Both the position numbers and the translations under genes were made by a program. DNA of 64,000 nucleotides from Cenarchaeum sp. (lineage in GTDB: Archaea; Thermoproteota; Nitrososphaeria; Nitrososphaerales; Nitrosopumilaceae): NCBI GenBank assembly GCA_965206845.1, contig OZ242221.1, forward strand, positions 896,001 through 960,000. The letters run 5' to 3'. Below the pieces are notes generated by a model. That model did no database searches, was not told the DNA's origin, and saw only the letters and a list, made by a program, of their open reading frames with translations. Below, one piece after another: positions 15,380-38,149 of this stretch (position 1 is the first letter of the stretch; each line of letters begins with the position of its first letter).

Positions 15380-16720
15380 ATGACGGAGAGGAAGAAAAAG
15401 ATCCTGGTTCTGGGTGGGGGATTTGCCGGGGTTGAGTGCGCCAGAAGGCTGGAGTCATACTTTGGCGATGACCCGGATATCGAGCTAACCTTGGTGTCAG
15501 AGTCCAATTTTTTGCTGTTCACGCCGATGCTGCCACAGGTGGCCTCTGGCATGATCGAGACTAGGCACATCGTGATACCCATCCGCGGCATCTGCAAGAA
15601 GACCATATTTTATGAGGAACGGGTAAAGAACATAGATCCCTACGGCAAGGTTGTAACCCTCTGGGGCACCCAGAGCAAGAGAAGCATCAGCATCAGTTAT
15701 GACTTTCTGGTTATTGCCCTAGGAAGCGAGACCAACTTTTTTGGTTTGGGGGATGTGAAACGTAATGCGTATACCATGAAGACGCTAGACGACGCCGTCC
15801 TGTTGCGCAACCAGATAATAGACATGCTAGAGCATGCGGAGAACGAGTCCGACCCCATCCTACGGAGGAAGCTGCTCACGTTTGTGGTGGTGGGTGGTGG
15901 TTTTGCCGGGATCGAGACGGCAGGTGAATTGCTGGATCTCCTAGTGGACGCAAAGAAGCACTACCCCCACATTAACAGGGATGATGTTCGGGTGGTGGTC
16001 TTGGAGGCGGGACCCGCGATACTGCCCGGATTTAGCAAAAAGCTGGTAGAGTTTGCGCATGAGAAGCTCAAGAACGGGGGGATTGAGATTATGCTGTCGG
16101 CCGCGGTTACCGGTTTTGACGGCGATGAGGTCACTGTCAAAAACTTTCAGACCAACAAGCCCTGGGATCGGGGAATAATATCAAAGACGCTGATCTGGAC
16201 CGCCGGGGTAACGCCGCCCAACACGATAAAGCGCTCGTTGTTCAAGACGGTGGGGGGCAAGATAGCCGTCGACGATTTTCTTGGGGTGCCTGGCTATCCG
16301 GGGGTCTTTGCCGTTGGGGACTGTGCCATGTTTGTGGAACCTAGCACCGGGAAGCCCCTTGCCCCCACTGCGCAGGCCGCAGAGGCGCAGGCAAGGGTTG
16401 CAGCATACAACCTGCACTCACTAATACGAAACAGGGCAAAGCGAAGGTTTGTGTTCCGTGGGAAGGGCCAGATGGCGATCATAGGAAAACGGACCGGAGT
16501 CGCAACCATTTTTGGCATCAACATGTCTGGTTTCCTAGCGTGGTTCCTGTGGAGAAACGTCTATCTCTCAAAGATTCCCAATCTGGAGAAGCGTGTCAGG
16601 GTTCTGCTTGACTGGACCATAGACCTGTTTTTTGACAGAGACATCTCCCGATTGCGGACGTTTAAGACGCGGGTCGAGAAGGAGTATCAGAGCTTGGATG
16701 CGGTGGATGATGTGTGGTAG
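15380..16720 (+). CDS. ndh: Type II NADH dehydrogenase-like FAD/NAD(P) oxidoreductase
   Basis: Two GGGFAG motifs, FLLFTPMLP, AVGDCA, PTAQAA. Confidence 0.88.
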   Translation: MTERKKKILVLGGGFAGVECARRLESYFGDDPDIELTLVSESNFLLFTPMLPQVASGMIETRHIVIPIRGICKKTIFYEERVKNIDPYGKVVTLWGTQSKRSISISYDFLVIALGSETNFFGLGDVKRNAYTMKTLDDAVLLRNQIIDMLEHAENESDPILRRKLLTFVVVGGGFAGIETAGELLDLLVDAKKHYPHINRDDVRVVVLEAGPAILPGFSKKLVEFAHEKLKNGGIEIMLSAAVTGFDGDEVTVKNFQTNKPWDRGIISKTLIWTAGVTPPNTIKRSLFKTVGGKIAVDDFLGVPGYPGVFAVGDCAMFVEPSTGKPLAPTAQAAEAQARVAAYNLHSLIRNRAKRRFVFRGKGQMAIIGKRTGVATIFGINMSGFLAWFLWRNVYLSKIPNLEKRVRVLLDWTIDLFFDRDISRLRTFKTRVEKEYQSLDAVDDVW

Positions 16721-18324
16721 CGTCTCCACTGGTAGATGACCGCCCCCGGAATGCCGGCGTACAGTCCTAGGCTCAGCAGTATGACGCCCATGCCGTATCC
16801 GAGCATCTCTGCCTCAGAGTTAATCTCTGCATGGTTTAACAGGGAGAGCGTCGATACCAGCGGCGTGATTGTAGCCCTGACTAGCTCCCGGAACGCGGGA
16901 TGCTCCCTCTCGAGATCTGCCACAGCAGGCGAGAACGAGTAGTACAGCTGGTTGAATCCGGTCATGAATGTCTGGCCCGTACCGGTCTGCAGCAGCACCT
17001 CGTCCCGGAGCTCCCTCAGTTGTTGAATCTGGGGAGCCATCTCGGTTCCAAAGGCGGCAGTCGCAATCAGGCAGCCGCCACCGCCCTCCGGGGCTTCAGC
17101 AACCGGTGTGCCGGGTTGGTCTGACCCCGAATCAGGCATGCTATCACCGGAGCCGTCTTCTCCAAAGGCGACCGTGTCTAGCAGCGCATCATACCTGTCT
17201 TCAAACTGACCAAAGGCCTGCGCATCGGCCGCGTATGTGATGACAAAGAATGTGTTCTCATTCAGAGTGGTGGTCTCCTTGAACTGCATGGTTGTTGTGG
17301 CGCCGGTGTTGGTTACAAAACTGCTCACCACGTTTCTTACATAGGCATCCCTCTCGCCCAGTGTAGTCGCGCCCTCAGATATTATCTCCATCCGGTTCCC
17401 CTCGACCAGTTGTTGAATAAGCTCATCCCCCCCTGCTACGAACTCATCCAGGGTTCTTCCGTCGGATGGCGATGTAACGAGGTGGATCGATGCCGGTACG
17501 GCCCCCGCTATAGGGCCTATGATCACCAGGTCTGGGGCGTCCGAACCCGTGCCCCAGCCGCTCTGTGCGTCCCAGCCTTCCGGTATGGTAAATGAGATGC
17601 CAAGCTCGTCGTTGCTGTATTCTGAGCTGGAGGTGGCAAGCACCGGTGTTGTATCCGTCGTCCTCCCCGGCTCTGACCACACCATAAGATCAGGCACGCT
17701 GGCGCGGTCTACAATCTCGACCGTCTCGATCTCCGTGTCCTGCCAGTTGATCGGCACTGTAGAGCCCGTGCCTCCCTGAAGCGAGGCCGGTGTGTCCATT
17801 GCCGCTATGGCGTCCAGCGTCACAAAACTCTCTTGTGTAGCAAGCCTGCCAAATACGGTATACGCCCCGTCAAGGAAGCTGGAGTCACTGTGCACTATGA
17901 AGAACTGGGATCCTGCGCTGTTGGGATCTGCGCTACGCGCCATGGACACAATGCCGCGATCGTGCCGTATGCTGTTGAACTCTGCGTTTATCGTGCCAGC
18001 AGGGCCGCCGGTGCCCCACCTCTGGACGGTCTCCTCACCTTCCCGGGTCAGCGGGTCGCCACCCTGAATCATAAATCCCTCGATTATGCGATGAAACACG
18101 GTTCCGTCATAAAAGCCGCTCCGGGACAGCTCCAGAAAGTTCCGGACATGTTCGGGCGCATCGTCCGGGAAGAACTCGATTACAATCTCGCCGGACTTTG
18201 TATGCAAGATTGCCACCGGCTCGCCGGACTCCGCGTCCGTCGCCAAGCCGGGGCTCTGCGCAAAGGAGGCAGGAACCAAGGTGACCACAATCAGGAGAAC
18301 GGCCGGGATCAGTGACTTTTTCAA
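16687..18324 (-). CDS. Secreted cyclophilin-type PPIase with a PsbP-like middle domain and a CFI-box-CTERM domain
   Basis: Signal peptide; FHRIIEGFMIQGGDP, SAGSQFFI; GGGGCLIATAAFG followed by a C-terminal TM helix. Confidence 0.88.
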   Translation of the reverse strand: MKKSLIPAVLLIVVTLVPASFAQSPGLATDAESGEPVAILHTKSGEIVIEFFPDDAPEHVRNFLELSRSGFYDGTVFHRIIEGFMIQGGDPLTREGEETVQRWGTGGPAGTINAEFNSIRHDRGIVSMARSADPNSAGSQFFIVHSDSSFLDGAYTVFGRLATQESFVTLDAIAAMDTPASLQGGTGSTVPINWQDTEIETVEIVDRASVPDLMVWSEPGRTTDTTPVLATSSSEYSNDELGISFTIPEGWDAQSGWGTGSDAPDLVIIGPIAGAVPASIHLVTSPSDGRTLDEFVAGGDELIQQLVEGNRMEIISEGATTLGERDAYVRNVVSSFVTNTGATTTMQFKETTTLNENTFFVITYAADAQAFGQFEDRYDALLDTVAFGEDGSGDSMPDSGSDQPGTPVAEAPEGGGGCLIATAAFGTEMAPQIQQLRELRDEVLLQTGTGQTFMTGFNQLYYSFSPAVADLEREHPAFRELVRATITPLVSTLSLLNHAEINSEAEMLGYGMGVILLSLGLYAGIPGAVIYQWRRYHTSSTASKL

Positions 18325-22937: not shown

Positions 22938-23162
22938 TGTGTTTGGGCGTGCCTTGTGTTTAATATGTTGGTGGGTACGCAGGTCGCCTGCGATACCGGC
23001 CAAGATGCGAGAACCCGCCTTGGTGCCTGAGCGATGCCAGAAACCGGCCTCGTGTGAGTGGTTTTTGTGGTTCGGGTTGAAGCCTATTTGGTGTTAGGGA
23101 GCATGCTCATAAAGAGTTTGAGTGAGGGCAGATTTAATAAAAACGTGGATCTGTTTTTGGTA

Positions 23163-24593
23163 TTGAGGAAAGAGGTCGCCGTAGCCTTAAAGTACGCATT
23201 AAATCTTGGTTTTCAGATTCATCCTGCCGCGCTGCAGGTATTGGAAGAGCTTGAGACAGGTGACCTTAATACCGTAATCAAATACATTGTTAAAAAAAAG
23301 ACCAGAGAGGGGACGCGCCTGATAAGCCGGGAAGACGCCGAGTCGTTTCTGGGCATTGGCCAAGATGTGTCACTGGAGGCAAATCTGGTGGTGTTGTTTG
23401 ACCCCACCGACAAGGTGACCACGGCAGAAGGGTTGAGTGGGTATGATGCTCTTTTTGCCAGCAGGTTTGCAAAGATGAAGCAGATTATTAGTGCACGGCC
23501 GGAAGCCAAAAAGCTCAGAGCGATTGGAAACGTCGCCAAGATGTCTGGTTCTAATAACGACGTGTTTGTCTGCGGTCTTGTCACCAAGAAGAGCACGGGA
23601 CCGGATTCTGTAAAAATTGTTTTGGAGGACACCACGGGGAGTCTTGAGGCGTGGGTGTTTGAGGAAGGCATTCGGACAGAAGCAGAGATGCTCTTGCTTG
23701 ATCAGTTTGTAATGATCCGGATCGGCAGGGCCAAAAACAACAGATTTGTTGTGAAGGAATTGGTTCTGCCGGGGATACCGGGGCACACGATCAATCATTC
23801 TGAAACTGAGTCCTTTGCCGTGTTTATTTCAGACTTGCATGTTGGCAGTGACTTCTTTATGGAGGAGGCTTTTTTGGAGTTTGTTTCGTGGTTATCCAGT
23901 ACCGACCAAGTCGCTAAGAGAGTACGATTTGTCGTTATCGGTGGTGATCTTATAGATGGTGTTGGGATATACCCCAACCAAGATCGGGGACTGGTATACC
24001 AAACGGTGGAAGAGCAGCTGCGGCGGGCAGAGGCGTTACTCTCCCAGATCCCACAGAACGTCAAGGTTGTCATATCCCCAGGAAACCACGACCCGGGAAG
24101 GCGCGCTCTGCCGCAACCGGCCATTCCAAGAAAGTACGGCGCTGGGCTCTGGGAACGCGAGAATTTTTTCATGGTTGGAAACCCCTGTGTCGTGTCCCTG
24201 AACGGTGTCAGGGTGCTGGTGTTTCATGGCCAAAGCATCGACGACATTGTAAAGACCACCCCGGGCTTGAGTTACGGCAAGCCGGCAGATGTCATGAAGC
24301 ATCTGCTTCGGGCACGACACCTCAGTCCTATTTACGGCAGCCTGACGCCTATTGCGCCGGAGAAGGAGGACATGTTGGTAATTGAAGATGTCCCAGACGT
24401 CTTTCATGTCGGACATGTACATGTAATGGCCCTAGAGATGTACCGGGGGGTGTTGTTGGTAAACTCGGGCGCCTTCCAAAGCCAGACGCCCTTCCAAGCC
24501 AGTGTTGGTCTGGAACCGACGCCGGGCCTAGCCGCGGTTGTAAATCTGAAGACATTTGAAGTCAGAACTATGAGTTTCGGTTCTGGGAGCTAG
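23163..24593 (+). CDS. polB: DNA polymerase D small subunit DP1
   Basis: ISDLHVGS, GDLIDG, PGNHD, FHGQS, RHLSP, GHVH; TTG start inferred. Confidence 0.95.
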   Translation: MRKEVAVALKYALNLGFQIHPAALQVLEELETGDLNTVIKYIVKKKTREGTRLISREDAESFLGIGQDVSLEANLVVLFDPTDKVTTAEGLSGYDALFASRFAKMKQIISARPEAKKLRAIGNVAKMSGSNNDVFVCGLVTKKSTGPDSVKIVLEDTTGSLEAWVFEEGIRTEAEMLLLDQFVMIRIGRAKNNRFVVKELVLPGIPGHTINHSETESFAVFISDLHVGSDFFMEEAFLEFVSWLSSTDQVAKRVRFVVIGGDLIDGVGIYPNQDRGLVYQTVEEQLRRAEALLSQIPQNVKVVISPGNHDPGRRALPQPAIPRKYGAGLWERENFFMVGNPCVVSLNGVRVLVFHGQSIDDIVKTTPGLSYGKPADVMKHLLRARHLSPIYGSLTPIAPEKEDMLVIEDVPDVFHVGHVHVMALEMYRGVLLVNSGAFQSQTPFQASVGLEPTPGLAAVVNLKTFEVRTMSFGSGS

Positions 24594-25804
24594 AGCACAT
24601 CTTCCAACACTAGATCGTCTTGGAATGTTTTTTTCACAGTATCGGCAGAGATGGTCAACCTGTGTTTCTTTGTCCGGCCGTGCGTTCCTTGATGTATTAT
24701 TCTGCTAGAGATGATGCCGGACATCTCTATTTCGCTGAGTATTTGGGTTATTCTTCTTGGAGTAAGATGGTCTTGTCTGACACCCGTACAGAGGTTTTTG
24801 TAGGAGGTGTATATCTCCCCTGTGGAAGAGCCGGCGGATCTCATAACGGCTAAAATAACTAACTTTTCATGTAGTGGATATGTCTTGAGCGCCGTGACCT
24901 CCTTGTTCTCCTCTATTTTTTGAGATGCATCCCTGACCTGCTGCTCTGTAACCTCGTTCTTTTGTTCCCGTTCGGCGATCTCTCCGGCTACCCGCAAGAG
25001 ATCAATGGCCCGTCTTGCGTCCCCGTGCTCGCGGCCGGCCATTGCGGCACACAGGTTCAGGGCGGCCTCTCCCACCGCTCCCTTGACAAACGCTTGTTCC
25101 GCTCTCTCCCCTAGGATTTTGTGTATCTGTTCCACGGTATAGTTTGTAAACACGATCTCCTCCTCCCCCAAACTGCTGATCACACGCGGATCCAGGTTCT
25201 CTTTGAAGGAAAGGTTGTTTGATATCCCCACCAGGGTCAGACTGCCGCGAACCAGCAACTCGTTTGATCTGGTAAGTTGGTAAAGAACGTCCTTGCCGGT
25301 TTTTGACACTAGTTGCGCCAAGTAGTCGATCTCGTCTATCACAAAGATCGCGTTCAATCTGTTTTTGTTTATTGCGCCAAGTAGGCGTTTGAAGACCTCG
25401 CTGATTGCCAGGCCGGCGGATGGAAGATCCCTGTCCGTCAGATCTAATTGCCGTCCAAAACTCACCAAAAGCCCATAGAGCGTCGTTTCTTGTTTGGAGT
25501 TAGCATACAGCAACCGGATTGGAAAGTTGCTCAACTCCACCTTTTTTTGGATTTTTGCCAAAACCTTCCTGACTACCAACGTCTTGCCGGTCCCTGGTTT
25601 GCCGTAGACTAGAAGGTTTGATGGCCTGGATTGTTTTAGTATTGGTAATAGTGATTGTGCGACCTGTTTTTGCTCCATATCACGGTGGTGTATCACATCC
25701 GGAATGTAGGTAAAATGCAATATCTCTCGGTTTTGGATTAGTGACATGCCTGTCTCAGCCGCATCCAAGATTCTGTCTATCGGATCGATTATTGACGCAT
25801 CCAT
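24590..25804 (-). CDS. cdc6: Orc1/Cdc6 replication initiator
   Basis: YGKPGTGKT, IDEID, HGDARRAIDLLR and a C-terminal wHTH. Confidence 0.97.
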   Translation of the reverse strand: MDASIIDPIDRILDAAETGMSLIQNREILHFTYIPDVIHHRDMEQKQVAQSLLPILKQSRPSNLLVYGKPGTGKTLVVRKVLAKIQKKVELSNFPIRLLYANSKQETTLYGLLVSFGRQLDLTDRDLPSAGLAISEVFKRLLGAINKNRLNAIFVIDEIDYLAQLVSKTGKDVLYQLTRSNELLVRGSLTLVGISNNLSFKENLDPRVISSLGEEEIVFTNYTVEQIHKILGERAEQAFVKGAVGEAALNLCAAMAGREHGDARRAIDLLRVAGEIAEREQKNEVTEQQVRDASQKIEENKEVTALKTYPLHEKLVILAVMRSAGSSTGEIYTSYKNLCTGVRQDHLTPRRITQILSEIEMSGIISSRIIHQGTHGRTKKHRLTISADTVKKTFQDDLVLEDVL

Positions 25805-25989: not shown

Positions 25990-26295
25990 GACCCCTCACA
26001 CCATAATTTCCATTCTGGAACAAGACATCGTGTGTGGTGTGTGGTACATGGTAATCGGATATGGTATATACCACATGTTCATATTCATACCCTCATAATA
26101 AAAAATTGAAAGAAAAAGGAGTGGAAATGTTGGTGTGTGGGTTATGGTGTAGTATTGTGATTAACAAATTGTTAAGATTTTGTAAATGTGATCTTAAAAC
26201 ACCCGATATTGACCCCTTTATTTCCACTCTGGGTGTGAAGATGGGCGTTAACATTGTTAAGACCCCGATATTGACCCCCTTATTTCCACTCTGGG
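25990..26295. other. Replication origin oriC with four ORB-like elements
   Basis: ORB-like boxes at 25990-26021 (-), 26119-26143 (+), 26211-26233 (-) and about 26273-26295 (-; CCCAGAGTGGAAATAAGGGGGTC); AT-rich stretch 26144-26200 between inward-facing G-strings; adjacent to cdc6. Confidence 0.88.
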
Positions 26296-26451
26296 CATGA
26301 AACAGGCTGATCCGCCACCAGGCCTGCAGACGGCCATGTTAACCACTACAAACACTACATACCAAACCAGGCGGTGAATATTAACAACGTTGATTGTTAA
26401 CAACTTTGAGCATAATGGTTGAATTGTTAACAAAAAGACCACTATCTGTAT

Positions 26452-26829
26452 TTGGGTAGTAAAAGGCTTCGTATCAACATCGAGGATTCGGAAGGCGCTA
26501 GATATGATATCAAACTGGATGGAAACATCAACCGGCAGAAGGTGCTTCGGTTGTTTGAGATAATGGATCTGGTAGATATTGAGGAAGGACCGAAGGCACC
26601 AAAACTGGACTCCATCAACGCCAAAATATGGCATATTGTGGACAAGTACTATCCCATGGGGAAATTTACCTCCTCGACCGTTCTGGAAAAATATGAGGAC
26701 GAGTACAACGAGCCAATAAAACTCAGCGTGATATCCACATACCTATCACGGTTCTCGATTCGTGGTAAGGTGCAGCGCAACAAAACAGGCCGGGAATGGA
26801 CATACCAAGCACCCAAAATCCATCACTAA
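26452..26829 (+). CDS. Origin-adjacent protein with a C-terminal winged helix
   Basis: KFTSSTVLEKYEDEY.EPIKLSVISTYLSRF...GKVQR.KTGREWTY wHTH-like pattern. Confidence 0.75.
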   Translation: MGSKRLRINIEDSEGARYDIKLDGNINRQKVLRLFEIMDLVDIEEGPKAPKLDSINAKIWHIVDKYYPMGKFTSSTVLEKYEDEYNEPIKLSVISTYLSRFSIRGKVQRNKTGREWTYQAPKIHH

Positions 26830-27045
26830 CTCACAAGAAAAATCACCTACAACATCTCATTGCGTTAACAACACAAAACAACCACAATTTACCCACCTAA
26901 TACCCAACACAAACCATCACTGATAGATCCCCTTTAACCACCAACCATTGGCAACCAGGCATTACTCACGACACCATGAGTGTAAGATACTTGGCAGAGT
27001 CATGGCACAACCGCAAACACCCCACACACACTAAAATGGTGACAA

Positions 27046-27654
27046 TTATACCACACCACCAGAAGATTCCAACCGCACCCTTCCCTTGTCCGTAATTGAG
27101 TACGTGTATGGCTTTGCGTCCGTGTTTCTTTTCACATACCCATCCTCAAACAACCGTTTCATTAACCGTGATGTGTGCTCCCTTGTACGCCCGATCGTGG
27201 TCCGTATGTCACGTGATGTCACATCCCCATCTGTGATTAACTCTAACACTTGATTGACAACACCTTGGGCGTTCCGCCTCTGCCCAGCCGGCTCATTACG
27301 AACGGCTGTCTTTTGGGCATTTGGGGCCGTCGTCGGCTCAGAGCTTCTGGCCATAATCACCAAGGGTTCAGCGCCAGTTGATTTGGGTTTATTGAGCGCG
27401 GACTCACTATCCCCAACAGCTTGGTGCTTACCAACTCCGGGCCCATCACTTACCAAGGCATCCAATTGCAGTTTCATACCTATGATCTGCTTCTCATAAT
27501 ACTCCAAACGGTTGAGAATTGTGGGGTCAATACCCTTGCTTTTTGGGTCGGCGTACGACCTTACCCTGCTAAACGCAAATAATGAGAACAGACCAACGGC
27601 AAACGCCAGCACCCAGCCCAACAGAACCACAGCATCTGGGATTTCCACTAACAT
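27046..27654 (-). CDS. Membrane-anchored winged-helix protein (N-terminal TM, short coiled coil, linker, MarR-like wHTH)
   Basis: Hydrophobic N-terminus; TSRDIRTTIGRTREHTSRLMKRLFEDGYV, YSITDKG. Confidence 0.8.
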   Translation of the reverse strand: MLVEIPDAVVLLGWVLAFAVGLFSLFAFSRVRSYADPKSKGIDPTILNRLEYYEKQIIGMKLQLDALVSDGPGVGKHQAVGDSESALNKPKSTGAEPLVIMARSSEPTTAPNAQKTAVRNEPAGQRRNAQGVVNQVLELITDGDVTSRDIRTTIGRTREHTSRLMKRLFEDGYVKRNTDAKPYTYSITDKGRVRLESSGGVV

Positions 27655-27858
27655 CACACTTTATGATGCCGCCTGTGATATATCATGCTCGAATAAACTT
27701 TGTTCACACATTGCTTAACATTGCGGTACTAAAATCACAACACAATCTCACAAAAACACTCACTGGATGATAAAGTCATAACCAAGTCTCATAAGAATAC
27801 CCAAAAGAACGAAAAATCACACCCAACCTCACAAACCAGCCCCGAAAGAATAAAAAAA

Positions 27859-28221
27859 TCACAACTTACAGGCTTGGCGGATCAACGCATCTATCACATT
27901 AATAACATCACGCTCGTTGTTGGAAGACATGTCATTACCACTAATCACAGAAACCCGTTCTGCTACCTTGACGATCGTGTCCATGTCATCTGGTGCAAGA
28001 ACGCCTAGGCTACGAAACATCACCAACGCATAACAAAACCTGACCAACTTGTCTCTTGTCTGGCCCAACTGCCGGTAGTATGCCCCCCTTGATACGTCAA
28101 ACTGTGTTTCTAGGACACCCCGGCGATCTAAAATAATCCTGAGCTGTCGTTCTGTAAACGATGATTTTTTTATAATTTCTTGGATAATGTTATTGAAATT
28201 GGACGACTCAAACCCCACCAT
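27859..28221 (-). CDS. Hypothetical HTH-like protein
   Basis: SSFTERQLRII and VSRGAYYRQLGQTR HTH-like pattern. Confidence 0.7.
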   Translation of the reverse strand: MVGFESSNFNNIIQEIIKKSSFTERQLRIILDRRGVLETQFDVSRGAYYRQLGQTRDKLVRFCYALVMFRSLGVLAPDDMDTIVKVAERVSVISGNDMSSNNERDVINVIDALIRQACKL

Positions 28222-28284
28222 AGCTATACAAAACTGTATCTTTATCCCAATTAAACTTTAAAGAGACGCCCTCAAACCCGCTGT

Positions 28285-29037
28285 ATGAGCAGAAGAGTTG
28301 AAGAGTATCTAAAATCAGAAGCAAAGAAGGTAAACGCCTTGGTGTTTGTGCTCATAGACTCTGAAATCTCCAATATGGACGCATCGATCAAGCTGGCAAG
28401 AGGCGTAGAGCAGGCCGGCGCCTCGGCCATTTTGGTGGGCGGTTCGTCCGCCACGGACCAGATGGGCATGTCCCAGACCGTCCAGGCCATCAAAAAGTCG
28501 GTTAAGATACCGGTGATACTGTTTCCTGGTAATATCACAGGCATAGTGCCAGAGGCAGACGCAATCTTCTTCAGCTGCCTTATGAACTCCGACAACCCGT
28601 ATTTCATTACACAGGCACAGGCATTAGGAGCCCCCAGCGTGCTCAAATTCGGTTTGGAGGCGCTACCCACCGCATACCTGATAATTGGCCAGGGCACCTC
28701 TGCGTGGTTTGTGGGCTCCGCCAGGGGGATTCCCCTTGGGAAGCCAAATATTGCCGCAGCCTACGCTCTGGCGGCTCGGTTCTTTGGCATGCGGTTTGTG
28801 TATCTTGAGGCTGGGTCTGGCGCCGCAACGAACGTAAACCCGGAGATGGTCAGGGCCGTCCGACGGGCCTTTGACGGGTTTTTGATCGTGGGTGGCGGAA
28901 TACGCGATGCCGGAACGGCAAAACAACTAGCTGATGCTGGCGCCGATGCCTTGGTGATTGGAACCCTGCTAGAGCAAGACGGCAAGCTGGAGACCTTGGT
29001 AGAGATAACAAAAACAATTCAAGGCAGAACGGCTTAA
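28285..29037 (+). CDS. pcrB: Geranylgeranylglyceryl phosphate synthase
   Basis: ILVGGS, ILFPG, YLEAGSGA, VGGGIR. Confidence 0.93.
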   Translation: MSRRVEEYLKSEAKKVNALVFVLIDSEISNMDASIKLARGVEQAGASAILVGGSSATDQMGMSQTVQAIKKSVKIPVILFPGNITGIVPEADAIFFSCLMNSDNPYFITQAQALGAPSVLKFGLEALPTAYLIIGQGTSAWFVGSARGIPLGKPNIAAAYALAARFFGMRFVYLEAGSGAATNVNPEMVRAVRRAFDGFLIVGGGIRDAGTAKQLADAGADALVIGTLLEQDGKLETLVEITKTIQGRTA

Positions 29038-29044
29038 ATCTGTC

Positions 29045-32000
29045 ATGTCCGAGGATGATACCTCCACCAAACTGAGGGATACTGACATGCCCCCGTACTA
29101 CTTTGACTACTACACCTCTCTGTCACAAAAATCATACAAGCTTTTTGAGACCGCGGCGGGTCCTAAATCCTCGCTGGCAGACTCGTCAAGCGGCGTGGAG
29201 CCGAAGATCGCCTTTGATCTTGCCGATCGCGTGGCCAAAATGCACGATATCGACATCGCCGCTCCGATAAGAGATCTGTTAGAGACCAACGGAAAGGAGA
29301 TCACCGCCCTGCTTCTCTCAAAGGAGCTTGCCTTGGGCAAATACCTTCCCAGCGACGCAAGCCTAGAGGAGCGGTTGGACGCGGCAGTCAGGGTGGGTTT
29401 GGCAATAGTGACCGAGGGGGTTACCATCGCGCCACTGCAGGGAATATCCGATGTCAGAATAAGGCAGAACGCAGACAACACGGACTATCTCTCCATATCC
29501 ATTGCCGGGCCGATGCGCTCGGCGGGCGGTACAGAGTCTGCCGTCACAATGCTGATTGCCGATCATGTGAGAAAGGCCGTCGGCCTGTCGACATACAAGG
29601 CAAACTCGTTTGATGATGAAACCGGACGCTTTGTCGAGGAGCTTAGAATCTATGAGCGAGAGGCCAGTAACTTTCAGTACCACGTGCTAGACGAGGACAT
29701 AGTCCGAACAATCTCCAACCTGCCAGTTGAGCTGGATGGGGTGGATACGGATCCATATGAGGTTGTAAACCACAAGTCGATGCGTCGGATTAAAACAGAC
29801 CGGGTTCGGGGCGGCGCCCTGCGCGTGCTCAACGACGGCCTGATCGGCCGTGCCAAGAAACTCCTCAAGAGGGTAGAGGTATACGATCTAGACGGGTGGG
29901 AATGGCTCAAAGACCTCAAGGGCGCCGTCCAGACCGGCGACAAGCAGGAAGATGCAGCTACAAAGCGGATGAGCGAGGTAATTACCGGCCGTTCCGTGTT
30001 GTCCATGCCAAAAAAACTGGGCGGATTCCGGCTCAGATATGGCCGAGCTTGCAATACGGGCTTTGCGGCCGTGGGGTTCCACCCCATCATAGGGGAGATT
30101 CTTGACCACACGATAACCGCGGGAACCCAAATCAAGATCGACATACCCGGCAAGGGCGCCACCGTGGCATTTGTGGACTCGCTGGAGACACCCGTTGTGC
30201 GCCTTAGGGACGGAAGCGTCGTGAGGATCAGGGACATCAAGCACGGGCTTGAGCTAAAGGCCGACATAGAAAAGATACTCCACCTGGGGGACATCTTGAT
30301 CTCCTTTGGCGACTTTCTTGAGAACAACGCGCAGCTGGTTCCGTCGGGGTACGTAGAGGAGTTCTGGATCGAGGAGCTGAGACACATCATAAAAAACACC
30401 ACAAGCCCCATACCCGCACAGTTTCTACTGCGGGAGCCTGATCTGGCCGAGTCGTTCCAACTGGCAGAAGACTTTGGCGTTCCCCTGCACCCAAAATTCC
30501 TCTTTTACTGGGATCAAATTACAGCAGATGAGTTTGGACTGATCTTGGAGCCTACTAGCGCGCAAGAGAACACAATCTGCTATGAGATGCGTTGCAAACC
30601 CGTGCTGGAGAAGATGGGGGTGCCGCATACAGTCTCTGACGGGCAGGCCGTCCTAAAGGGCAGCGAGGCCGAGATATTTCACAGGCTGCTGTTCAGGAAC
30701 ACAATCGACACAAAATCCGGCTCTGTTCTTGAGACCATCTCAAGGCACTCTGGAATAAGGATTCGGGCCAAATTCTCCACTTCCATCGGAGCGCGCATAG
30801 GACGGCCCGAGAAGGCTTCCCCCCGGGTAATGAAACCACCAATCCACACACTCTTTCCGGTGGGGCACTGGGGCGGGGCCACCAGGAATCTCATCAAGGC
30901 ATCAAATAACCCGGACTTTGCCACCAGAATCTCAGACCGTACGTGTCCTAAATGCGACTTTCCCTCCTTGGGCATTAGGTGCTCAAAGTGCGGTAGCAAG
31001 ACGCTGCTAAGGTACACATGCCCGTCCTGCCATAGCAAGCTGGACACAAGGTTCTGCCAAAGGTGCAAAAAGACCGCGAGAGGTTACGTGCACAAAAAAT
31101 TTCCATTAAAGGAGATGCTGTTTGATGCCCAGAAGAGGACAGGGATCCGTGCCCAGGAACCATTCAAAGGCGTGATGGAGATGATCAACCAAGACAAGAT
31201 CTCCGAACCTCTGGAGAAGGGACTTATCAGACAGAGCAGGAACCTGACCGTCTTCAAGGACGGAACCGTAAGATTTGACGCAACAAACTGTCCGCTGACC
31301 CACTTCAAACCCGCTTGGATCGGAACACCGGTCTCAAAACTCAGGGAGCTTGGATACCTGACAGACGCCGACGGTCAGCCTCTGGAGAGCCCCGAACAGA
31401 CAGTGGAGCTGCTCATGCAGGATGTTGTCATACCACACACCGCCGGACGATACCTGACCGAGGTCTGCAGATACGTAGACCAGGAGCTTGAGCATTTCTA
31501 CGGGGGGCAGCCATTCTACCACGTGAAAGGAACCGACGATCTGGTGGGTCACCTCATAATCGGTCTGGCTCCCCACACCTCGGTGGGAATAGTCGGGAGG
31601 GTTATCGGGTTCGCAAACACACAAGTCTGCTTTGCAACACCCAACTGGCACTCGGCCAAGCGGCGGGACGCGGACGGCGACGCCGACTCGATAATGCTCC
31701 TGCTGGACACGCTGCTTAACTTCTCCCGCAGGTTTCTCTCAGACAAGATCGGCGGCCTGATGGACGCCCCGCTTCTGATACAGCCGCTGGTCTTCCCTCA
31801 CGAGTCACAGTCCCAGGCGCACAACCTTGAGGTAGTGCGGCGCTACCCTCTGGAGTTCTTCGAGTCCACCATGTCCGAACCCAAGGCCGCAGACATCTCA
31901 TCGGTTGAGATGATTAAATCAAGGCTGGATACCTCCGAGCAGTTCCACGGGTATCACTTTACCCATCCCACTTCATCCCTTGTCACCTCCCAGTCCCGCA

Positions 32001-32416
32001 GCGCCTACTCGACGCTGAACTCCATGCTCGACAAGCTGGATCTTCAGATTAGAAACGCAGACATCATCAATGCGGTGGACACCAACGAGATCGTATCAAA
32101 CCTGATCTCGACCCATCTGATCCCGGACATAATGGGCAACCTGCGTTCGTATGCGAGGCAGAGCTTTCGTTGCACCCTGTGCAGGGCCAGCTACAGGCGG
32201 CCTCCCCTGATCAGAAGATGTAACTGCGGCCACCAGCTCATTCAGACGATCACCCGCTCATCGGTGGAAAAGTACCTCAAGCTGGCAAAGAGATTGGTCG
32301 AAAAATATCACGTAAGCCGGTATCAAATGAACAGAATTCTTGTGCTGTCTGACGAGATTGACTTGGTGTTTGGAAAGAGCCGAGGGGATCAGGCGCTGCT
32401 GACCGATTATGCGTAA
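29045..32416 (+). CDS. polC: DNA polymerase D large subunit DP2 (no intein)
   Basis: AGPMRSAGGT, GGFRLRYGR, FKDGTVRFD, catalytic RRDADGDAD, Zn fingers. Confidence 0.97.
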   Translation: MSEDDTSTKLRDTDMPPYYFDYYTSLSQKSYKLFETAAGPKSSLADSSSGVEPKIAFDLADRVAKMHDIDIAAPIRDLLETNGKEITALLLSKELALGKYLPSDASLEERLDAAVRVGLAIVTEGVTIAPLQGISDVRIRQNADNTDYLSISIAGPMRSAGGTESAVTMLIADHVRKAVGLSTYKANSFDDETGRFVEELRIYEREASNFQYHVLDEDIVRTISNLPVELDGVDTDPYEVVNHKSMRRIKTDRVRGGALRVLNDGLIGRAKKLLKRVEVYDLDGWEWLKDLKGAVQTGDKQEDAATKRMSEVITGRSVLSMPKKLGGFRLRYGRACNTGFAAVGFHPIIGEILDHTITAGTQIKIDIPGKGATVAFVDSLETPVVRLRDGSVVRIRDIKHGLELKADIEKILHLGDILISFGDFLENNAQLVPSGYVEEFWIEELRHIIKNTTSPIPAQFLLREPDLAESFQLAEDFGVPLHPKFLFYWDQITADEFGLILEPTSAQENTICYEMRCKPVLEKMGVPHTVSDGQAVLKGSEAEIFHRLLFRNTIDTKSGSVLETISRHSGIRIRAKFSTSIGARIGRPEKASPRVMKPPIHTLFPVGHWGGATRNLIKASNNPDFATRISDRTCPKCDFPSLGIRCSKCGSKTLLRYTCPSCHSKLDTRFCQRCKKTARGYVHKKFPLKEMLFDAQKRTGIRAQEPFKGVMEMINQDKISEPLEKGLIRQSRNLTVFKDGTVRFDATNCPLTHFKPAWIGTPVSKLRELGYLTDADGQPLESPEQTVELLMQDVVIPHTAGRYLTEVCRYVDQELEHFYGGQPFYHVKGTDDLVGHLIIGLAPHTSVGIVGRVIGFANTQVCFATPNWHSAKRRDADGDADSIMLLLDTLLNFSRRFLSDKIGGLMDAPLLIQPLVFPHESQSQAHNLEVVRRYPLEFFESTMSEPKAADISSVEMIKSRLDTSEQFHGYHFTHPTSSLVTSQSRSAYSTLNSMLDKLDLQIRNADIINAVDTNEIVSNLISTHLIPDIMGNLRSYARQSFRCTLCRASYRRPPLIRRCNCGHQLIQTITRSSVEKYLKLAKRLVEKYHVSRYQMNRILVLSDEIDLVFGKSRGDQALLTDYA

Positions 32417-37591: not shown

Positions 37592-38149
37592 ATGCCAGAT
37601 ACAACAGAGACTAGCATGAGATCCCTGTACACCACAGTACTGAGAGAGGCTGAGAGCGACATCATCCAGGAACTGCCTACAAACCTCTACCTGGCCTTCT
37701 CCTCACATCTGGGAGATCTGAAGCGGGCCAAGTATGACAACATCGAGGCCAAAATCAAGGAGGAGCTCATTGAAATGACCGTCGGGCTAGTGGGATTGTT
37801 GCTCCGGCTCAGGCTTGGGAAGGCATCGGCCGGGGGATCGGCCGGACACCACAACCTGCTGGATGAGGAGAAGTACATAATCGACTCTGCTGGCGAGATG
37901 CAGGAGAGGCAGAAGATGATCCTCTCGGCCATACTGAACGGCAAGTCAAAGCTCCTAGAGTCCATGTCTGAGAAGCACAAGACAAGGCTGATTGCCGTAA
38001 GATTTCTCAAGGAGATAGATCAGTTTGTGGGTGCCGATCTGGAGGGATACGGGCCCTTTGCGGCAGAGGATGTTGCCAGCATACCGTACGAGAACGCCCA
38101 GGCGCTCATATCCCAGGAGATTGCGGCGAAGATCCGGTGGGAAGACTAG
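37592..38149 (+). CDS. GINS complex subunit (Gins51-like)
   Basis: Helical A domain and B-domain motif VRFLKEIDQFVGADLEGYGPF..EDVASIP. Confidence 0.85.
   Translation: MPDTTETSMRSLYTTVLREAESDIIQELPTNLYLAFSSHLGDLKRAKYDNIEAKIKEELIEMTVGLVGLLLRLRLGKASAGGSAGHHNLLDEEKYIIDSAGEMQERQKMILSAILNGKSKLLESMSEKHKTRLIAVRFLKEIDQFVGADLEGYGPFAAEDVASIPYENAQALISQEIAAKIRWED

Follow-up and report, generated by a model that had tools for sequence, protein, structure and literature searches.

The window considered here is a stretch of 64,000 nucleotides from Cenarchaeum sp. (contig OZ242221.1), an archaeon whose genome is a single contig of 1.65 Mb and whose proteins have their named relatives in Nitrosopumilus and Nitrosarchaeum. 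It holds a putative replication origin accompanied by three small genes, designated P1, P2 and P3, and by two clusters of short DNA motifs, and the possible part of these genes in handling the origin is the subject of this work. The genes are arranged in the order DP1 (+), cdc6 (-), a 647-bp gap, P1 (+), P2 (-), P3 (-), geranylgeranylglyceryl phosphate synthase (GGGPS, +) and DP2 (+). An earlier examination, here called the sequence-only reading, had described P1, P2, P3 and GGGPS as embedded among DP1, Cdc6 and DP2, which has been confirmed by the open reading frames and their domain matches, with all four frames lying between DP1/cdc6 and DP2 where that reading had located them. P1 occupies 26452-26829 on the forward strand, while P2 (27046-27657) and P3 (27859-28221) are both transcribed from the reverse strand. 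The small subunit of DNA polymerase D, DP1 (23058..24593, +, start codon uncertain), matches DNA_pol_E_B and Metallophos above cut-off when translated from 23109, and the Orc1/Cdc6 initiator (24590..25804, -) scores 352 bits against TIGR02928, with a cut-off of 181.3. GGGPS (28285-29037, +), the first gene of a GGGPS-DP2 unit, is a group II enzyme matched over its full length by TIGR01769 with 230.1 bits, above the curated cut-off of 161.55, and is followed by the large polymerase subunit DP2 (29045..32416, +; PF03833 at E 6e-98).

The gap between cdc6 and P1 (25805..26451) has repeats resembling origin recognition boxes (ORBs) around an AT-rich stretch beside cdc6, a layout of the oriC1 type, on account of which it is taken as the likely oriC. 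It also contains sites of the first motif described below and the repeats D3, D4 and I1. An ORB matrix built from the corresponding gaps of relatives (consensus CCCCTTTATTTCCACTGGAG) has matches in the window gap at 25999 (+, 12.8), 26116 (-, 11.2), 26213 (+, 23.3) and 26275 (+, 21.4), the last two being the top two of 28 matrix hits in the genome. The extremes of GC and AT skew of the genome do not point to this origin. A single origin has been reported in N. maritimus, in the accessible part of the source (PMC4010727). No tRNA or Rfam RNA was found in the gaps of 23 loci and the window, and a sigma-70 promoter scan, with a model unsuited to archaea, gave results at chance level. RNA contigs from three metatranscriptome runs cover P1 from 26457-26492, cdc6 and GGGPS with coverage too thin to use, and those covering P2 and P3 come mostly from one run whose RNA status is a guess.

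Products of the three genes

P1 (125 aa) has been modelled with a pLDDT (predicted local distance difference test) of 79 as an N-terminal beta-beta-alpha domain (two strands, one helix) joined by a loose linker to a winged helix in the C-terminal half, which resembles that of BlaI and CopY in the model, the fold search and Pfam. Its best fold match is a Fur domain (Z 10.9, root mean square deviation 2.0, 70 residues aligned). Penicillinase_R (PF03965) is matched by 31 of 67 members of the P1 family at E<=0.01, the best at 3.6e-8, and the modelled winged helix together with these matches upholds the earlier description of P1 as a winged helix-turn-helix (HTH) protein. The window protein itself scores 16.5 bits, under the cut-off of 22.6, and covers positions 9-64 of the 115 in the profile only; neither P1 nor P3 matches a Pfam or NCBIfam family above cut-off. 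From these features, P1 may be regarded as a candidate origin accessory factor.

P2 (203 aa) comprises a predicted N-terminal transmembrane helix, a short coiled coil, a linker and a C-terminal winged helix, the last at residues 136-192 and recognised by HTH_27 with 30.5 bits (cut-off 22.2). The single hydrophobic helix lies near residues 9-28, with a 19-residue hydropathy of 2.5, and a transmembrane helix is predicted in 66 of 87 relatives. Since three basic residues follow the helix and none precedes it, the winged helix is most probably cytoplasmic, with no outer domain. The membrane helix and winged helix of the sequence-only reading are thus supported, and its coiled coil less so, being short in the window protein, where the heptad score gives z -0.8; z>=2 is reached in 44 of 82 relatives. 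The recognition helix has a CRP-like pattern, R-E-H-x-x-R, in which E160, H161 and R164 are invariant in 49 of 49 aligned members and R159 is kept in at least 90%. It aligns with SREMVGR of Vfr, matching its R, E and R, the residues through which CRP-family proteins read TGTGA. With these properties, P2 is a candidate membrane tether.

P3 (120 aa) is confidently all-alpha in its model (pLDDT 87). The fold search returned no match with E<=0.001 or Z>=8, the best Foldseek hit having an E of 2.9 and an Atlas lead 0.84. The earlier label of an HTH-like protein is weakly supported: matches to the Tfx-like structure 8hno are non-significant (E 0.3 and 0.84), Sigma70_r4 is matched by 2 of 49 family members, and P3 is at best an HTH protein of the sigma4/Tfx/YlxM type. 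A complex prediction with two copies each of P2 (residues 30-203) and P3 gave a score of 0.01, which counts neither way.

Distribution of the genes among relatives

Conservation was followed in 99 loci centred on P1, hand-picked for family spread and long contigs, so that the counts are not those of a random sample; as the relatives are related by descent, the counts are not independent either. The order DP1-cdc6-oriC-P1-P2-P3-(Elf1)-GGGPS-DP2 recurs across Nitrososphaeria and Bathyarchaeia. In these loci, cdc6 lies within 1.5 kb of P1 in 66, and P2 and P3 lie within 5 kb in 64 and 57, respectively. All three stand beside P1 in 50 of the 99, from 16 families, so that the conservation beside oriC on which the sequence-only reading depended has been established. 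P1 was found in 112 of 121 genomes of the class and in 97 of 98 high-quality ones (a tally that includes the unpublished G114). In a sample of 251 genomes of the phylum, P1 was matched in 171 (four marginally, with E near 1e-4), P2 in 140, P3 in 131 and DP2 in 158, at thresholds that differ between the proteins. Family members carry source names such as Bathyarchaeia, Caldarchaeum, Methanosuratincola, Nezhaarchaeales and Infirmifilum. Full-length P1 relatives named from Helarchaeota, Syntropharchaeia and Halobacteriota (P0503, P0497 and P0480) occur among 10 proteins picked for divergence.

The three genes have been lost separately, which makes their earlier treatment as a single system too simple. 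P1 occurs alone in families f19, f36 and f44, with P2 in f18, and with P3 in f30, f38 and f41; P2 and P3 occur without P1 in f13 and f15, and P2 alone in f37. In f2 neither DP1 nor DP2 is present at the locus, yet P1-P2-P3-GGGPS has been retained.

P1 keeps close to the origin repeats. After 26 of 118 loci had been dropped for having no ORB cluster, P1 was located within 700 bp of 78 of 85 ORB clusters in P1-bearing families, and in 13 of those 78 loci, 2 of them at contig ends, cdc6 was not within this distance. In four genomes with ORBs on the P1 side and no cdc6 nearby, none of the 8 cdc6 genes had an ORB cluster within about 3 kb. The reverse case, in which P1 has left the origin, is found in f20, f26 and f38; in f20 and f26 it then adjoins or lies near the PCNA gene (L074, L075, L082, L083, L118-L120).

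Other genes have been noted around the cluster. A small helical protein with no Pfam hit (cluster c37; L105:8978-9322, L071:11234-11602, L135:2922-3230, L131:9416-9787) lies beside the ORBs on their cdc6 side, frequently at loci from which cdc6 is gone, and may be a candidate origin factor. In some Bathyarchaeia a gene of 340 aa and a HerA-like gene (DUF87) stand between P1 and P2 (L078, L079, L094, L095, L097, L098, L122, L124), and in several an ArsR-like winged helix of 90-110 aa directly follows DP2 (L085:16642-16944, L095:19609-19887, L131:6457-6780). In many lineages a protein combining HTH_3 and CBS is encoded either next to P1 or in between P2 and P3 (L071:8353-9006 and 23 other loci), and in f5 a gene for the cytoskeleton-linked Arcadin-1 comes after DP2, beside the origin cluster (L041:3942-4313). 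In the window, the GINS51 gene is situated at 37592-38149, about 11 kb from the origin, and is also close to the cluster in f2 and f7. A membrane protein encoded at 16687-18324, which we take to be cyclophilin-like, ends in a CLIATAAFG-type tail, presumably a thaumarchaeal one.

Two DNA motifs beside the origin

The word TGTTAA or its complement TTAACA (motif 1) occurs 11 times in 1 kb at the window origin and at most three times in any other 1-kb interval of the genome. A cluster at 26161..26432 has sites at 26161, 26170, 26248, 26255, 26337, 26381, 26395, 26397, 26425 and 26427, including the TGTTAACA palindromes at 26395 and 26425, and an extra site lies outside it at 26865. In relatives, the motif reads TGTTAA or TGTGAA. 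A total of 523 sites was seen in 85 origins of P1-bearing families against 147.2 expected; the 7 origins of f13 and f37, two families in which no P1 was detected, had 6 against 7.7 expected. Family f19, with P1 present and both P2 and P3 in 0 of 6, keeps the motif, with 8, 8 and 12 sites against about 1.2. Motif 1 is also retained at the ORBs where P1 lies 2.5 kb (L031, L032), 5.8 kb (L149) or about 500 kb (G142) away, and the regions upstream of these displaced P1 genes have 0-2 copies of TGTTAA. Because it stays with the ORBs and not with P1, motif 1 is, by its placement in these sequences, an origin element, and it is fairly likely that P1, as the best candidate, is its reader. A search for a parS-like spread in the 40 kb around the origin revealed no prominent 7- or 8-mer besides motif 1. 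A possible link between the T/G change in the motif and the P1 wing residue K111 was discarded as not specific, as its leave-family-out accuracy of 0.81 compares with 0.82-0.85 for columns of Cdc6, DP1, P2 and P3, in a test for which the tree shown is a quick one.

The second motif consists of TGTGA/TCACA half-sites in an array at 27645..27950, some 1.5 kb from the ORBs, that takes in the P2 start, the gap between P3 and P2 and the 3' end of P3. The interval 27645-27945 is the densest in the genome for this word, with 10 per 300 bp against 5 in the next best and a mean of 0.4. In relatives, the word is YGTGAY, often as the palindrome TGTGAYRTCACA with a half-site spacer of 2 bp, and TGTGATATCACA is a candidate target site for P2. 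A perfect YGTGAYRTCACR palindrome, one of 2 in the genome, lies within P2 at 27212..27223. Five or more half-sites per 300 bp are found in 58 of 87 loci with P2 and in none of 17 from seven families lacking it, an association with a family-level p of 2e-4 that kinship overstates. The perfect 12-mer is present in 58 of the 251 genomes of the phylum sample. Among the matches listed, 50 of 52 perfect 12-mers lie within 3.5 kb of P2 or P3 in 38 genomes with both genes outside the window's family, a count that leaves out this family, three listed sites in genomes without P2 and 16 unlisted match rows. In the 66 loci that have P3 and an anchored P2, 145 near-palindromes were counted, compared with 14 reversed controls; the 21 loci whose P2 has no anchor gave 13 and 3, and the 5 loci with P3 and no P2 gave 0 near-palindromes.

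The position of these sites within genes is informative. Near-palindromes peak at the P3 stop codon. This codon falls within a YGTGA word in 32 of 77 cases, whereas the stop codons of five other genes do so in 10 of 352. Over the last 55 codons of P3 in f1-f3, the full word is spelled in 33 of 42 Val-Ile/Met/Thr pairs, whereas control genes spell it in 37 of 287; families other than f1-f3 showed no such synonymous bias (5 of 29). By this codon comparison, motif 2 is under synonymous selection within P3. The recurrent Asp-Val-Ile-like stretches with which P3 ends (27862-28030) appear to be dictated by the DNA motif and not by protein need. In L105, ten sites extend over 7.3 kb across unrelated inserted genes, and in G142 the P3-P2 pair lies with its one perfect site about 15 kb from the ORB-bearing cdc6. 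Genome-wide, the near-palindromes of the window genome are not biased toward the origin, and 9 of 35 touch non-coding DNA at a coding fraction of 0.88, so that by this count no regulon shows there. Taken together with the recognition helix, it is likely that P2 reads motif 2.

A possible origin tether and its alternatives

The reading preferred here, with a probability of roughly 0.45, is that P1 serves as an accessory factor of the origin and that P2, anchored in the membrane and acting together with P3, recognises a centromere-like array and so tethers the origin region to the membrane. The three proteins would form an ancient accessory module with two arms. In the first, soluble P1 would bind TGT(T/G)AA sites between and beside the ORBs and shape or time the assembly of Cdc6 and minichromosome maintenance (MCM) proteins, and would probably also repress its own promoter. 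In the second, P2 would be held in the membrane by its one N-terminal helix, with almost nothing outside, dimerise through its coiled coil, and reach by its flexible linker the local YGTGAY half-sites and TGTGAYRTCACA palindromes, with P3 as a cofactor or co-reader. The topology and dimerisation of P2 are those predicted from its sequence. Given that a one-pass membrane protein binding a single array next to oriC links the locus geometrically to the membrane, the origin region would be held there and sister origins positioned or separated as the envelope grows. This role in positioning or segregation is put forward tentatively. Regarding a Walker-type ParA/SegA partner, PF13614 gave one 40-residue match far from the locus (G000) and none among the recurrent neighbours scanned, so that the force would have to come from envelope growth or another partner. 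What has been observed is the order of the genes, their domains and the two motif clusters, together with the selection on these clusters and the way they are distributed along with P1 and P2. The tether that the sequence-only reading had suggested is therefore plausible but unproven, with motif arrays near the origin that track P1 and P2. A bolder form of the proposal, held with greater reserve, sees an ancestral origin-handling module of Thermoproteota in which P2, with P3, bound to the centromere-like TGTGAYRTCACA array would tie oriC to the membrane and segregate sister origins without a ParA motor, next to a winged-helix co-initiator, P1, that would be a more faithful mark of the origin than cdc6 and have Asgard relatives. 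In this form the module would constitute the first origin-to-membrane tether in archaea.

Several observations weigh against this reading. The functions given to P1, P2 and P3 are drawn from sequence and structural models. Each gene has been lost somewhere, and none of the three is found beyond marginal scores in eight families of the phylum sample (f14, f21, f23, f28, f29, f32, f33 and f40), indicating that none is universally needed. The transmembrane helix is missing from 21 of 87 P2 relatives, in 9 families, some of which start with a short hydrophobic-basic stretch. For motif 1, the control without P1 consists of two families only, and 18 of 85 origins show less than twofold enrichment, mainly in f18, f35, f36, f44, f45 and f47, which have P1 and in which cdc6 is not adjacent. 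Motif 2 is weak in f7, f17, f24 and f45 (median 2-3 per 300 bp), and the perfect 12-mers of the window's own family are, among the matches listed, scattered and not at the locus. No perfect 12-mers were found in lineages with P2 and no P3 (f18 0/22, f37 0/4), and P3 may therefore be needed for them. Finally, both motifs also extend over promoters or starts of P1 and P2, as operators do.

This overlap leads to the alternative that P1, P2 and P3 act as transcription regulators, chiefly controlling themselves and the cdc6 and PolD genes, with a position at the origin that serves cell-cycle timing and, in P2, an anchor for sequestration or regulated release instead of tethering. The BlaI/CopY-like and CRP-like helices and the anchor-less forms of P2 would fit such a function. 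Once separated, however, motif 1 follows the ORBs and not the P1 promoter, and motif 2 peaks at a stop codon, within coding sequence, and continues across inserted unrelated genes; a positional element is a better fit than an operator for sites that fall within coding regions, at the ends of genes and over passenger genes. In addition, the near-palindromes disclose no regulon, and P2 has no outer sensor domain. The regulator explanation remains the main rival, though a less likely one than the tether.

It is more improbable that the motifs are read by other proteins, such as Cdc6, chromatin proteins or, for motif 2, P3, and that inertia of gene order has kept the three genes near the origin. 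Motif 1 is at its weakest at origins without an adjacent cdc6, its T/G change co-varies with columns of Cdc6, DP1, P2 and P3 just as well as with P1, and anchored P2, P3 and palindromes come together in all 66 such loci. On the other hand, f13 has cdc6 beside its ORBs, no P1 was found there and motif 1 is not enriched; loci with P3 and no P2 have no near-palindromes; and the genes have survived insertions, inversions and the loss of PolD.

The sequence-only reading had also proposed that initiation is coupled to ether-lipid synthesis through GGGPS, which now appears very unlikely. GGGPS is within 10 kb of P1 in 39 of the 50 loci with cdc6, P2 and P3, P3 is within 1.2 kb of it in 38 of 58 GGGPS loci, and in f9 it has moved together with P3-P2. 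Nevertheless, it lies more than 10 kb away or outside the fetched DNA in 11 of the 50, and it stands beside Elf1, whose gene usually precedes it in relatives, in 40 of 58 loci and beside DP2 in 45. A P2-type palindrome occurs in 5 of 46 gaps facing GGGPS/Elf1 and in none from the window or its class, and proximity to the origin by itself gives early gene doubling. By this linkage, GGGPS is probably a passenger of an Elf1-GGGPS-DP2 unit outside the module, and its coupling to the module is not supported. A domesticated plasmid or virus replicon or partition cassette, now inert, is hardly credible: a binding protein encoded beside an array of its own sites is how plasmid partition cassettes are laid out, but the genes are single-copy, intact and syntenic across two classes, motif 2 is under synonymous selection and P2 has no match among 72,556 plasmid records.

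Returning to the preferred reading of a membrane tether with an accessory factor, comparison with known systems suggests that P1-P2-P3 works like bacterial origin tethers and the archaeal protein UBP while belonging to neither family. P2 shares with CRP and Vfr the R-E-x-x-x-R recognition helix; only its HTH matches, and no N-terminal cyclic-nucleotide-binding domain was found. Its half-site spacer is 2 bp, and that of CRP 6 bp. P1 shares a winged helix with BlaI, MecI and CopY and has an extra N-terminal domain; its score under the PF03965 cut-off and its missing C-terminal dimer domain set it outside this family. ToxR and CadC, as far as their accessible descriptions go, are one-pass membrane DNA binders, as P2 is predicted to be; P2 differs in having no outer sensor domain.

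In the available portion of one source, RicO-ricS of Staphylococcus aureus, RocS of Streptococcus pneumoniae and RacA-ram of Bacillus subtilis combine an HTH and a coiled coil with attachment to the membrane and with specific sites close to the origin (10.64898/2026.03.06.710092), the combination proposed here for P2. The order is reversed in P2, with the anchor first and the winged helix last; no N-terminal MerR/MarR HTH followed by a coiled coil was found in it, nor any MerR-type hit, and a true transmembrane helix is predicted in place of the C-terminal amphipathic helix given in that portion. It is a further point against the tether that the P2 array spans less than 10 kb, while ram and ricS are there described as 9-25 sites over about 600-700 kb (10.64898/2026.03.06.710092). 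SegAB of Sulfolobales, in the text accessible, resembles P2 as proposed here in that a site-specific binder has palindromic sites immediately upstream of the gene encoding it, and its foci lie near the cell periphery; SegB differs in being a ribbon-helix-helix protein that works with a ParA-type ATPase, with no anchor described in that text (PMC12284271).

At the origins of Sulfolobales and Desulfurococcales, a second, non-ORB motif, ucm, has its own binding protein, UBP, which the consulted sections describe as a saddle-shaped protein that has hundreds of sites and whose motif lies within the unwinding element, and as a recent gain of those two orders, with analogues elsewhere posed as a question (PMC12141716). 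Like UBP as characterised in those sections, P1 would act at the origin itself via a non-ORB motif; it differs in being a winged helix by its model, in being encoded at the origin and in having its motif concentrated at one place in the genome. UBP is absent from the listed matches in PDB sequence and fold searches of P1 and P3.

The literature searched, whose scope left out subscription papers and supplements with possible neighbourhood tables, yielded no account of the module. Chromosome segregation in archaea outside Sulfolobales (PMC7617429) and extra proteins acting at archaeal origins (PMC12141716) are presented as open questions in the available parts of these sources. The locus provides three proteins and two exact DNA words, and with them two testable protein-DNA pairs. 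If the preferred reading is true, ammonia-oxidising archaea and Bathyarchaeia would have a RicO/RacA-like origin tether made from unrelated parts, and P1 would be an origin factor in the place that UBP has in Sulfolobales.

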